Source: Octopus vulgaris
Taxonomy: Eukaryota
Direction: 5' to 3'
NCBI GenBank assembly: GCA_951406725.2
Contig: OX597841.1
Span: 806,001-870,000, forward strand
Length of the DNA stretch: 64,000 bases
Part shown: positions 31,330-45,859 of the stretch, in pieces
How the letters are laid out: each line of letters begins with the position of its first letter
Position numbering within the stretch: position 1 is the first letter of the stretch
Position numbers and translations under genes: made by a program
The notes under the pieces: model-generated
Told to the model about the DNA's origin: nothing
Databases searched by the model: none
Seen by the model: the letters and a program-made list of their open reading frames with translations, nothing else

Positions 31330-31657
31330 ATGTCCCGGTTTCCTTGTACCCATCCTGCTGTGATAACAGTGCTTCTGTTAACTCTTGCAACCATTCTGGT
31401 TGTTAGCTCAGATCAGGAACGTGAAGCAAGCTACGAACGTTTGCCTCCTGGCTACTCTTATGGTTACCTTCAGTCATCACCATCGGAAATATTCTATTCA
31501 ACACGAAGTCTGCTGGAATGTGCCGGCCTCGCTCTAAGCAGCCAATCAGAATTCTTTACTTACAACAAAGTGAGTCGTGTTTGTAAGAATTACTCACCGA
31601 AGAATATAATGACAATCGTCAGCACGAATGACACCAACGAGATTTCATTCTATAAAA
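31330..31657 (+). CDS. Gene A exon 1: signal peptide + degenerate PAN/apple-like module of a 292-aa secreted protein
   Basis: MSRFPCTHPAVITVLLLTLATILVVSS/DQERE... has a hydrophobic leader. SLLECA..(x)..FTYNK...C is PAN-like. Donor GTAAGT at 31658, phase 1. Paralogous exons at 53947 and 62462. Confidence 0.88.
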
Positions 31658-31855
31658 GTAAGTGAAACTTTTTTTGTTATAATTACTATTAGTATTTATT
31701 ATTGATTCTTCCTCCGGGTAGATATAATTACCAGATGAAAAGTGGAGTCAATGAAATCGACTAACTCTTCTCCTCACGTAATTGCTGGCCTTGTGCCAAA
31801 AATTGTGATCAATATTATCTTTGTTGTTCCTTCTATTGAAGTAAGTGAAGCCTAT

Positions 31856-32040
31856 TTATTCTTTTATTCTTTTTTTATTTGTTTCAGTCATTTGACTGCG
31901 GCCATGCTGGAGCTCCACCTTTAGTCGAACAAATCGCACCTGGATTTATTGTTTTTGAGCCTAGTACATATTCTATCGGTCTCTTTTTGCCGAACCTCTA
32001 AGTTCGTCAAGCGATGGTGGGGGACAAAGACACACACACA

Positions 32041-32101
<61 letters not shown>

Positions 32102-32277
32102 ACCCACACACGCATATTTATATATATATATCTACATACGACGGGCTTCTTTCAGTTTACGTCTATGAAATCCACTCACAAGGAGTTGGTTGGTCCGAGG
32201 CTGTAGTAGAAAACATTTTCCCAAGGTGCCACGCTGTGGTACTGAACCCGGAACCATGCTGTTGGTATTCAAGCTAC
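31856..32277 (-). mobile_element. tRNA-derived SINE in intron 1 of gene A
   Basis: GTTTCAGTCATTTGACTGCGGCCATGCTGGAG...(CA)n...GAACCCGGAACCATG is the reverse complement of the 10832 family. Confidence 0.85.
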
Positions 32278-32309
32278 ATTTAGTCATTTAATTTGCCATA
32301 TAAGCAGCA

Positions 32310-33300
32310 CATAGATAAGGTAGCTTATATAAATGCAGATTTCAAAATTTTGCACAAAGTAGTAGCTACGAGTTTGGCCATCGTCGTCGGTGATCTGGTA
32401 GTAGAGGCAAAGATATGCGCCATCCCGAACGGATCCATCTCCGACAACCTCCACCTCATGCGATATATCTTTGAGAAAGTGGCTAGAGAGACTGGCACGG
32501 GTGGATCCCTGATCAATTTCTATGTGCTTATGATCCGAAACCTTTACGGTGATGTCGTTGGCATATGCCGACACGTATCTCCCACAACCTAGGTTACGCG
32601 TGATGCATGTCAACGCTTCCAGAGTGGGTATTAATGGCTTAAGAGTCCGTACATACACGCTTTTGATAGGGTCGACCATTTATACCGGGCGACCGTCTTC
32701 AGGGCAGTTGGTTTCGAGCCTGTGTTCAAGGGCTGGATTGCCGCAGTTCACATCTGTTCAGTGGTCAGAGTGAGCGGTCACCTCTCAGAACCGTTCAACA
32801 TCATGCGCCTGATTAGGCAAGGCTGACCTCTCCCGTCTCTCTTGTATGTACTAATTCTCGAGCCATTACTACACAATCTGGAGGCGTTGAGTTGTATTCT
32901 GCGTGACCTATGATGTGGGAGATGCGTGTCGGCATATGCCAATGACGTCATCTTGGTGGTGTCGGATCATGAATATATAGAAATGATCGGCACCACTCTC
33001 AGGGACTACCAGGTGGTTTCAGGGGCGATGATTAATCAGTAAAAATCAATGGGCTTGCGGATTGGCACCTGCAGAAACAAGTCCATGCTGTCCATCAGCA
33101 TGATTGGGCCCCGGATGAACGAACTGGTTAAACTGGTTGTTGTCTGGTTTCTTCCAGACCCCCAGATGGACCAAAACTAGGACGAGGAAACGGGCAGGAT
33201 CACTACTGTCACCCAGAAATGGGCTGAGGGAAAGCTATCTATGACAGGTCGTGCAGAGTTAGCTAACGCGTACATCACGTTCGTCCTGTGCTATCACTTG
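32310..33300 (+). mobile_element. Degenerate Tx1/L1-clade LINE reverse transcriptase fragment
   Basis: INADFKILHKVVATSL..CAIPNGSISDNLHLMRY, AFDRVDH, IRQG*PL..LLYVLILEPLL and VSAYANDV (YADD equivalent), with stops and frameshifts. Confidence 0.8.
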
Positions 33301-33344
33301 AACGTTTTCTATAAGTATTTCATTGTGTTCACTTTCTGTTTCAT

Positions 33345-33785
33345 ATGAATCGAACCTCATCTGTTTTCAGTAATAATCTAACTCACCTATAGTATTCTTT
33401 TCTTATGTTCTCTTTCATTTGTGCGTATTATATCGTATCTAGTTCATTGATTCCTAAATATCTGTATGTCTGGATTTTGTCTGATTTTCTTATTTCCTTT
33501 GCTGTATCTAGTCTGATGTTGCTACTCTTAACTAGTCTTCCTCGTTTCAAGGTGGCTTTAGCACATTTTTGTGAGCAAAATTTCATGTTTATTTCTTTGG
33601 TAATTCCATGTACATTCTGCAGTAATGTTTCCAGCTGCTTATCATTTGTAGCGTACAGTTTTAGAATACCCGTATATAAGAGACGGCTGATTGTTTTGCG
33701 GTAACAATTGTATCCACATCCAGTTTTGTTTAGCATGTCGAATAAAGTTATCATTAACTAGCAGAAAAAGAGGGGAGAGAGTGTG
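33345..33785 (-). mobile_element. R4/Dong-type LINE RT fragment
   Basis: ORF 33428-33754 (ISRLLYTGILKLYATNDKQLETLL..KCAKATLKRG) is homologous to the RT at 36076-36957. It continues at 34207-34360 after a SINE insertion. Confidence 0.85.
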
Positions 33786-33789
33786 TCTA

Positions 33790-34206
33790 CTCTATCTACT
33801 CTTTTACTTGTTTCAGTAATTTGACTGCGGCCATGCTGGAGCACCGCCTTTAGTCGAGCAACTCGACCCCGGGACTTATTCTTTGTAAGCCCAGTACTTC
33901 TTCTATCGGTCTATTTTGCCGAACCGCTAAGTGACGGGGACGTAAACACACCAGCACAATTCGTCAAGCAACGCTAGGGGGACAAACACAGACACACAAA
34001 CACATACACACATATATATATATATATATATATACATATATGCGACGGGCTTCTTTCAGTTTCCATCTACCAAATCCATTCACAAAGCATTGGTCGGCCC
34101 GGGGCTATAGCAGAAGACACTTGTCCAAGATGCCACGCAGTGACACTGAACCCGGAACCATGTGGCTGGTTAGCAAGCTACTTACCACACAGCCACACCT
34201 GCGCCT
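33790..34206 (-). mobile_element. tRNA-derived SINE, full length, inserted in a LINE fragment
   Basis: Minus strand starts AGGCGCAGGTGTGGCTGTGTGGTAAGTAGCTTGCTAACCAGCCACATGGTTCCGGGTTCAGT (A/B-box-like head). Confidence 0.9.
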
Positions 34207-34360
34207 CGAATATTCCTCTTCAAATAGGGATGGCTTTGGGTTTTATGAGTCCCTCTTTTGCCTGGAGTTGTGGCACTGTCTACCATTTATTCATGGAATA
34301 TTTTCTATATTTTATGATTATAGGCGCTATTTTGTTCATGGCTACTATTTCTAGGATCCA

Positions 34361-34463
34361 TTATTATTATTATTATTATTATTCAGTAATTTTATTTTTA
34401 AAGTGTGCTTTCACTTCGCTACCGTGCGAATTAATATTATTATTATTATTATTATTATTATTC

Positions 34464-34527
<64 letters not shown>

Positions 34528-44178: not shown

Positions 44179-44329
44179 GCCTGATGGTATGTGTTGTCTA
44201 GGAATTGTATCCATGGTGATGTTTGCAGATGGAACCGGTTGAGATGTAGCGCAGATATAAATATTTCTAAAATAAATTATTTGTAATGAAAGTTTTAGAA
44301 ATAAAGATGCCTTATCCAAATATCAGGAC

Positions 44330-44342
44330 AGCACCAGCACCT

Positions 44343-44373
<31 letters not shown>

Positions 44374-44395
44374 CAGTAGCGGTAGCAGCAGCATC

Positions 44396-44433
<38 letters not shown>

Positions 44434-44437
44434 CATC

Positions 44438-44495
<58 letters not shown>
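44330..44495. repeat. (GCA)n/(GTA)n microsatellite
   Basis: Direct read. Confidence 0.9.
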
Positions 44496-44901
44496 TCTTG
44501 TACTCGCATAAGACTAAATTTAAACATGGATACATTAGTCCAGTGCTTCTCAACCGGAGTCCATTTGAACCCTTGTGGTCCTTATGAGAATGTTGGTGTT
44601 TTACGCATGCACAATAGTAAATTGGGATCCATAGTAGCATAAAAGACGACTCCCTTCGGTCATGAATAGCCTTAGCATAGCACCTTAAAATGTTCCCCTC
44701 CATGTGACATATCCTTGCATGTTTGTTTATGGAAGGCCAGCAGTCGCCCATGTCTGCCAGCCTCTCCTCTCCGCGCTCTCGATGTTACCCAAAGGAAAAG
44801 CAAAGGGACCGATACAGCCTGGCACCAATGACCTCGCAACTCATTTCTACAGCTGAAATGAACTGAAGCAAGGCACATATTGTTCAAAACACGATGGAAA
44901 A

Positions 44902-45103
44902 TTTTGGCACGAAGCCAGTAATTTCGGGGGAAAGGGTTAAGTCGATAACATCGAGCAGAGCACTCGATTTTTACTTATTTTATCGACCCCGAAAGGATGA
45001 AAGGTAAAGTAGACCACGGCAGAATTTGAACTTAGAACCTAAAGACTTATGAAATACCGCTAAGCATTTTCCGCGGTAACGATTTTGCCAGCTCACCGCC
45101 TTA
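44902..45103 (-). mobile_element. SINE with Nin-like central domain
   Basis: TTATCGACCCCGAAAGGATGAAAGG..GGCAGAATTTGAAC. Other copies at ~45575-45690, 49260-49545 (+) and 53634-53812 (-). Confidence 0.75.
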
Positions 45104-45124
45104 ACACGAAGGAAAATATTGCGG

Positions 45125-45366
45125 TACAAAATATAGAATTTTTATCTCATCCGCCTCATTCTTCTGGTTTTGCTCCATCTGACTACCAACTTTTCAAACC
45201 ATTGCAACGGTATTTAGAGAGCAAACATTTTGTCAATTGTGATGAGGTCACAAATTGTATTGAATGGTGGTTCTTTGCTTCGCAAGATGAAGACGATTAC
45301 GCCCCAAGGCTTAACTATTTTCCAAATAGACAGGATTATGCCATCAATAGTGAAGTGAAATATTGA
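45125..45366 (+). mobile_element. Decayed mariner transposase C-terminal fragment
   Basis: HPPHSSGFAPSDYQLFKPLQ..FFASQ matches the mariner HPPYSPDLAPSDYHLF motif. Confidence 0.8.
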
Positions 45367-45809
45367 TTTCAAATTTTAGCACAAGGCCAGAAATGTCGGG
45401 GGAGTGAGTAAGTAGATTATTTTTGAAGAACAATGTTTTAGAGAAGCAGAAGATCGGCGGGTGTCTTTTCCTCCTCTCATTAATATCATAATTTCGTTTA
45501 TCATTTCGTCTCATTAATGTAATGTCCAGCCCGCAGCTACATCTGTGTAATGCCCTTGTGGTAAATTATATGAATAAAAGTAGATTACTTTGATCCCTGC
45601 TCTCAATTTGTACTTGTTTTATCGATCCCGAAACGAAGAGAGTCAAGTCGATCTTCTGCTAAAGGTTCCGCCAGCTCGCTACCTTAATGAAGGGAAATAT
45701 TATTTTGATTAAATAGAGAAATTAAATCCAAAATTGCCTTTGCTGTTACTGATTGTTGTCTTGTTAATTTTGCTGTTGTTGTTGTCATTGTTACTTTATT
45801 ATTTTCCAG

Positions 45810-45859
45810 GTTTGGAAATAGGTGATTCCATGGCCATCTTCATCCGCCTAAAACCTTAA
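45810..45859 (+). CDS. Gene A exon 5 (terminal)
   Basis: TTTTCCAG acceptor. Phase-1 join gives (G)LEIGDSMAIFIRLKP-TAA. Total CDS 328+179+161+161+50 = 879 nt, i.e. 292 aa + stop. Confidence 0.75.

Follow-up and report, generated by a model that had tools for sequence, protein, structure and literature searches.

A large, apparently undescribed cluster of mosaic genes in Octopus vulgaris encodes likely secreted proteins with a PAN module and a positively selected exon

Several invertebrates diversify recognition proteins in the germline, as in the SpTransformer cluster of the sea urchin and the clusters of fibrinogen-related proteins (FREPs) of snails. In fibrinogen-like domains the P subdomain holds the ligand site and is the most variable part, as stated in PMC5928061. 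We describe here a gene family of Octopus vulgaris through one of its members, a five-exon gene within a 64,000-nucleotide stretch of the contig C28 (G000:C28:806001-870000, hereafter the window; positions are those of the window unless marked C28). About 60 loci of this family are clustered in the octopus genome near one chromosome end. With the SpTransformer and FREP clusters they share tandem arrangement, mosaic genes, selected residues that would be engaged in binding, and many broken copies. However, the octopus protein is unrelated or only remotely related to theirs, and an immune role is one that we infer here.

The five exons (Table 1) are separated by introns that are all GT-AG, in phases 1,0,2,1, and their coding sequence of 879 nt specifies 292 amino acids (aa) followed by TAA, as the first-pass annotation had proposed. 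The O. sinensis RefSeq protein XP_036355611.1 (P0004, 290 aa) matches the product at 82% over all 292 residues, which gives independent support for the five-exon splicing. The same protein shares 98% identity with a sister gene spliced by the same scheme, and exon 4 is an exact sequence match to O. vulgaris database proteins. The product contains seven cysteines and an unnamed C-terminal domain of about 180 aa. The predicted N-glycosylation sequons, NDT (100) and NQT (177), and the lack of a transmembrane anchor were both borne out; a further NYS at 87 precedes Pro, and the only hydrophobic 19-residue stretch is N-terminal, starting at residues 1-12. As a hydrophobic N-terminus is present in 37/37 intact models of the family and a later membrane-like stretch in 0/37, the encoded proteins are likely secreted.

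The GenBank models CAI9742329.1 and CAI9742330.1 fuse neighbouring copies, leave exon 1 early and skip exon 2. The early exit can be traced to a donor-like consensus site, AAA/GTGAGT, within exon 1 at 31570, and splicing from there to exon 3 is in frame with loss of C85 and exon 2. Such splicing is likely a mis-annotation or, less probably, an alternative isoform. Contigs of four sequencing runs were compared with exons 2-5; as their pieces span exon-intron borders the runs were judged DNA-like and uninformative on expression, and among the joints listed none falls at a predicted junction.

The family is roughly ten times larger than the handful of copies first suggested. Single-exon searches of the O. 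vulgaris genome returned at least 68, 65, 68 and 24 matches for exons 1, 2, 3 and 4, nearly all on C28. The exon-profile scan, which covered 120 stretches around these matches as well as the window and from which overlaps were removed, gave 68, 67, 67, 66 and 53 matches for exons 1 to 5. The exon-1 matches, two pairs of which each represent a single frameshifted exon split in two, lie on C28 in 65 cases (46 in its first megabase and 19 elsewhere) and on other contigs in 3. Exon chaining from these 68 produced 38 intact, 8 broken and 19 incomplete chains and 3 without a usable site; for some of the incomplete ones the DNA between exons was only partly covered. After the model at C28:14604190, frameshifted in exon 2, was dropped, 37 intact five-exon genes were kept, forming 33 groups at 97% identity and 26 at 90%. 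Five of their six core cysteines are invariant and the sixth, C64, is retained in 36.

All 48 relatives found by a word-index search belong to Octopus, many of those in O. sinensis and O. bimaculoides being placed on one 15-19 Mb contig, and Argonauta also has family members. In a quick tree, 55 octopod rows formed one group (96 in the Shimodaira-Hasegawa-like approximate likelihood ratio test, with long branches nearby), outside of which stood one dispersed relative from each of two species, together with outgroup rows, among them named bivalve proteins. An assembly artefact was rejected for the family overall, as O. vulgaris models are matched at 91-100% by 11 of the 17 O. sinensis proteins. 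The 15 members in O. bimaculoides reach only 55-77% to the O. vulgaris models, whereas O. bimaculoides and O. sinensis share 86% identity in a dispersed relative that lies outside the cluster, a contrast that points to turnover within it. In databases the proteins are called uncharacterized or hypothetical, with a few automatic labels such as 'Apple domain-containing'.

The genes are mosaics, because their exons have different trees: the data of each exon reject the trees of the other exons (approximately unbiased test, few replicates). Pairwise identity in exon 1 also barely predicts that in exon 4 (rho 0.07). In the studied gene, exon 1 is 97% identical to the downstream neighbour, exon 2 is 93% identical to a gene 0.9 Mb away, and exons 3-4 are 97-98% identical to C28:922859, whose own exons 1-2 derive from yet another gene. 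The mosaic at C28:922859 recurs in O. sinensis at 98% and is therefore not an assembly error. The duplicated segment that includes exon 1 (Table 1) is part of the mosaic origin of the studied gene.

Variation is unevenly distributed along the protein. Across the 37 genes, amino-acid identity is 0.68-0.72 from the PAN module through exon 2 to the early part of exon 3, and drops to 0.45-0.48 in the late part of exon 3 and in exon 4; excess amino-acid change is concentrated at aa 213-262, and F218, F228, C237, G242, W243, C252, P261 and Y265 are invariant amid near-random positions. The ratio of nonsynonymous to synonymous rates (dN/dS), averaged over all pairs, is below 1 everywhere (0.3-0.7 region-wide), and since exon 4 has a high dS as well, deep lineages contribute to its variation. 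Site models M8 and M8a were compared per exon with our own code. Twice the log-likelihood difference (2dL) reached 74 in exon 4, where 29% of sites have an omega of 2.9; exons 3 and 2 gave 37 and 21. For PAN (12.5) and the signal peptide (8.2) the values fall close to or inside the range of the null simulations, and we claim no selection there. Among 20 simulations under the null model with exon 4 settings, 10 of which included heavy recombination, the highest value was 11.0. In 10 disjoint close pairs, exon 4 had accumulated 136.5 replacement and 16.5 silent differences (replacement to silent ratio, pN/pS, 2.32; Fisher p 0.0002) against a pN/pS of 0.62-0.89 in the other exons. Exon 4 thus shows a signal of positive selection and would form a binding surface.

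Structural comparison relied on AlphaFold models of two relatives of the window protein, P0003 (C-terminal domain, predicted local distance difference test score 88) and P0004 (full length, 86.5). The exon 1 region of the P0004 model has a PAN fold (Foldseek probability 0.99-1.0, template modelling (TM) score 0.58-0.66, root-mean-square deviation (rmsd) about 3), the best match being the HGF N-domain (probability 1.0, TM 0.65-0.66), which sustains the PAN-like module of the first-pass annotation. Pfam PAN_3 scores the studied protein at 14.8 bits, below its cut-off of 21.1, and more distant relatives exceed the cut-off of PAN_1. The likeness to PAN/apple proteins (HGF N-domain, plasminogen, leech anti-platelet protein) lies in this fold of exon 1; unlike them, the studied protein has one Cys pair only, stays under the Pfam cut-off and is devoid of a kringle or protease.

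The C-terminal domain matched nothing in Pfam, NCBIfam, PHROGs and PDB sequence searches, and Foldseek against viral models returned nothing at E 0.001. It has 669 relatives among 50%-identity representatives, including cnidarian clusters, and some bivalve relatives share the same PAN plus unnamed domain layout; the expected spread across marine invertebrates was thus confirmed in molluscs and cnidarians. In 56 longer relatives that were scanned, the domain occurs beside C-type lectin, discoidin, EGF, TSP1, sushi, ZP and VWD modules and coiled coils.

We consider this domain probably a headless and distant branch of the fibrinogen-related fold. Intelectins and fibrinogen-like domains take Foldseek ranks 1-8 for the domain model, the alignments of the predicted structure run from the first to the last strand of fibrinogen-like domains, and among named Atlas clusters the nearest, at 0.94, is 'Fibrinogen C-terminal domain-containing'. 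Of 240 domain copies, 12 have an A-subdomain in register, belonging to 8 of the 192 proteins examined; it is joined without a linker such that its GGW tryptophan is the first-strand tryptophan of the domain itself, and this junction was seen in animal-type and probably bacterial proteins. These lines lend genuine, if indirect, support to the echo of fibrinogen-related and intelectin domains that had been suspected at the outset, but a profile comparison of the domain with octopus fibrinogen domains gave no signal, which weighs against the link. PF00147 did not exceed its curated cut-off in P0003 (0 Pfam families) and matches 2 of 119 alignment members, where in the relatives inspected it covers the A-subdomain alone. 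Neither P0003 nor P0004 has an A-subdomain (YCDM..GGW) before the first core strand. The P-subdomain calcium loop FSTxDxDND and the CA..GGWW..C motif, both present in the octopus alignment of fibrinogen-related domains (FReDs), occur in none of the 37 models, which carry FSI..RRF..C..DxGW..C instead. The FReD lectins (ficolins, tachylectin 5A and mollusc FREPs; PF00147) resemble the family in secretion (likely for the octopus proteins), in the predicted strand-helix core with its closing C-terminal strand, in the disulfide-bearing variable region ahead of the last strand and, for some family relatives, in the in-register A-subdomain and coiled-coil stalks; they differ in that the studied protein has PAN in place of A-subdomain, calcium loop and stalk and matches them neither by sequence nor by profile. 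Intelectins (X-type lectins) show 8-10% identity and rmsd of at least 4, and the octopus domain is shorter and without the A-subdomain.

It is rather unlikely, in our estimate, although a serious contender, that the C-terminal domain is unrelated to fibrinogen, being independent or nearer to TLDc and having sometimes gained a mobile YCDxxxxGGGW module. TLDc and fibrinogen-like domains score equally against the predicted model, a hint of a shared core fold, of which no discussion was found in our literature search. TLDc proteins such as OXR1, NCOA7 and TBC1D24 are intracellular partners of the V-ATPase, whereas the octopus family has a predicted signal peptide and invariant cysteines. The linkerless junction with its shared tryptophan, found in both animal-type and probably bacterial proteins, and the strand-to-strand coverage of the alignments also argue against an unrelated domain. 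In each of four long, probably bacterial surface proteins (P0076, P0085, P0092 and P0110) the unit of A-subdomain plus domain occurs twice, and three of the four also have FG-GAP or TIG repeats; the domain may be of ancient origin or may have crossed between kingdoms.

As one end of the protein changes fast and exons are mixed between copies, the cluster likely supplies varied recognition proteins. The first-pass annotation had left recognition, mucus and venom side by side; the selection signal favours recognition, and mucus or venom found no support, with 0 motif hits in the searched parts of skin-mucus, ink and salivary-gland proteome supplements, a weak negative. We propose that the cluster encodes likely secreted two-domain proteins, a PAN module followed by what is probably a headless fibrinogen-like domain, whose variable region would be the counterpart of the ligand-binding P subdomain. 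The fast-changing end likely binds varied non-self targets, for example microbial or parasite surfaces, and the PAN module would serve as a constant docking or assembly part. Duplication and unequal crossing-over or gene conversion would mix parts between copies, and selection on binding residues would yield many binding specificities on a shared scaffold of PAN and core. That the clustered genes form such a repertoire, with a largely constant secreted PAN and core and a variable end diversified by exchange and selection, we judge to be about an even call. The bolder statement, that this headless fibrinogen-like cluster of about 60 exon-trading loci is the main diversified soluble pattern-recognition repertoire of octopods, is offered more tentatively, as a possibility that falls short of even.

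Other roles would also account for part of these features. Reproductive proteins are typically secreted, encoded in expanded tandem arrays, under positive selection and quick to turn over between species, and a family of the seminal fluid, spermatophore, oviducal gland or egg coat, diversified by sexual selection or gamete recognition, would show the same pattern; the relative P0051, with four domain copies and a ZP module, points the same way. Dozens of coexisting exon-mixed variants would nevertheless suit many targets better than one partner, and we regard a reproductive role as unlikely. Many venom families are likewise secreted, disulfide-bearing, expanded and positively selected, and the relative P0158 carries an ShK module, as might be expected if the variable face were aimed at prey proteins in a salivary or venom gland. 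Yet none of the matches was to a toxin family or toxin fold. Five family motifs and one accession had 0 matches in the O. vulgaris posterior salivary gland proteome supplement (PMC7693380, file contents unchecked), a weak negative, and the words fibrinogen, PAN and lectin are absent from the main text of the octopod venom genome paper (PMC7656900). A venom role thus appears improbable. A structural or adhesive part of mucus, sucker cuticle or matrix, with variation owed largely to relaxed constraint and gene conversion, seems to us equally improbable. It would agree with relatives in matrix-type proteins that carry VWD, C8, TSP1 and ZP modules, with the region-wide dN/dS and with the 30 of 68 exon-1 chains that are broken, incomplete or unresolved. 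Relaxation, however, does not explain the exon 4 pN/pS above 1 in close pairs together with the site tests, and family motifs had 0 matches in the searched portions of the skin-mucus and ink proteome supplements (PMC10138644, PMC10142993), also a weak negative.

Table 1. Exons of the studied gene and related features of the window
Feature	Positions	Strand	Remarks
Exon 1	31330..31657	+	predicted signal peptide (~aa 1-27) and PAN-fold module, one Cys pair C64/C85
Exon 2	40148..40326	+	unnamed domain begins: first strand WIKAY, helices, C145/C150, FRxPILDxW
Exon 3	41541..41701	+	two long core strands VKLVVYK, VFDG; WFS, WxDL; hypervariable 3' end aa 213-222
Exon 4	43020..43180	+	RRF strand, invariant C237 and C252, GW; most variable exon, signal of positive selection at 13 sites
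Exon 5	45810..45859	+	closing strand DSMAIFIR, then TAA stop
Lone exon-2 copy	49845..50023	-	open frame, first Cys lost; accompanying exon 1 or 3 not found
Truncated paralogue	53947..57359	+	exon 1 53947-54268, exon 2 56089-56267, exon 3 from 57264
Intact 292-aa paralogue, partial view	62462..63178	+	exon 1 62462-62789, exon 2 63000-63178
Duplicated segment	26443..31703	+	~5 kb upstream and exon 1; second copy 57952-62836, 92-94% identical

The claim of at least four copies within 32 kb holds for the number of loci, the studied gene included, but of the others one is a lone exon, one is truncated and one spans the window edge (Table 1). In the truncated paralogue the exon 3 homology stops near 57359 and exons 4 and 5 are absent before the next gene; short GC-rich degenerate CAGCCA-like repeats (57360-57625) start exactly at this break. 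Exons 3-5 of the paralogue at 62462 lie past the window end, at G000:C28:874345-877640. The lone inverted exon 2 trails the last exon of three related genes (49845-50023, C28:801840 and C28:905992) and moves together with the duplicated unit. The stretches C28:830775-866000 and 880192-907000 form a duplication spaced about 50 kb apart at 94-99% identity, including a 99%-identical twin of the gene at C28:886920, which may be a recent duplication or an uncollapsed haplotype.

Several repeats accompany these loci. A tract of about 25 kb (positions 1-24800) within the gene cluster is made up of AAT/AAC/AAG triplet repeats in mixture and is strongly strand-skewed (AT skew about 0.65). Intron 1 contains a decayed retrotransposon without long terminal repeats on the minus strand (35160-38708), with a reverse-transcriptase fragment at E 4e-5, under the cut-off, and the truncated copy carries a related piece (54759-55627, 87%) in its own intron 1. 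A fragment in intron 4 (45064-45363) had no match in Pfam and resembles, by a motif, the C-terminus of a mariner transposase. Further downstream are an AT-rich palindrome (47837-48665, 76%) and an inverted repeat (50257-52394) with 700-base arms (83%) around 50964-51671.

The family is real and large and, it appears, undescribed. Six family locus ids were found in no paper, and no description appeared by title or abstract start in the literature searched, which did not extend to subscription papers and in which the family may sit unnamed in supplementary tables. The gene clusters named in passages of a cephalopod genome paper (PMC9068888) do not include the present one. Proteomic and expression work may have overlooked it, given that the GenBank models fuse genes and omit exon 2. 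According to PMC10140915, the C-type lectin repertoires of cephalopods are strikingly small, and the O. vulgaris genome gave only at least 15 PF00147 matches, all on contigs other than C28. The unnamed extracellular domain family defined here has hundreds of members and may widen the fibrinogen superfamily, of which, if the link is true, the octopus family would be a fibrinogen-like variant. Dozens of genes for likely secreted proteins that are invisible to domain scans and combine a selected face with mixed exons are a candidate source of recognition diversity in the octopus.

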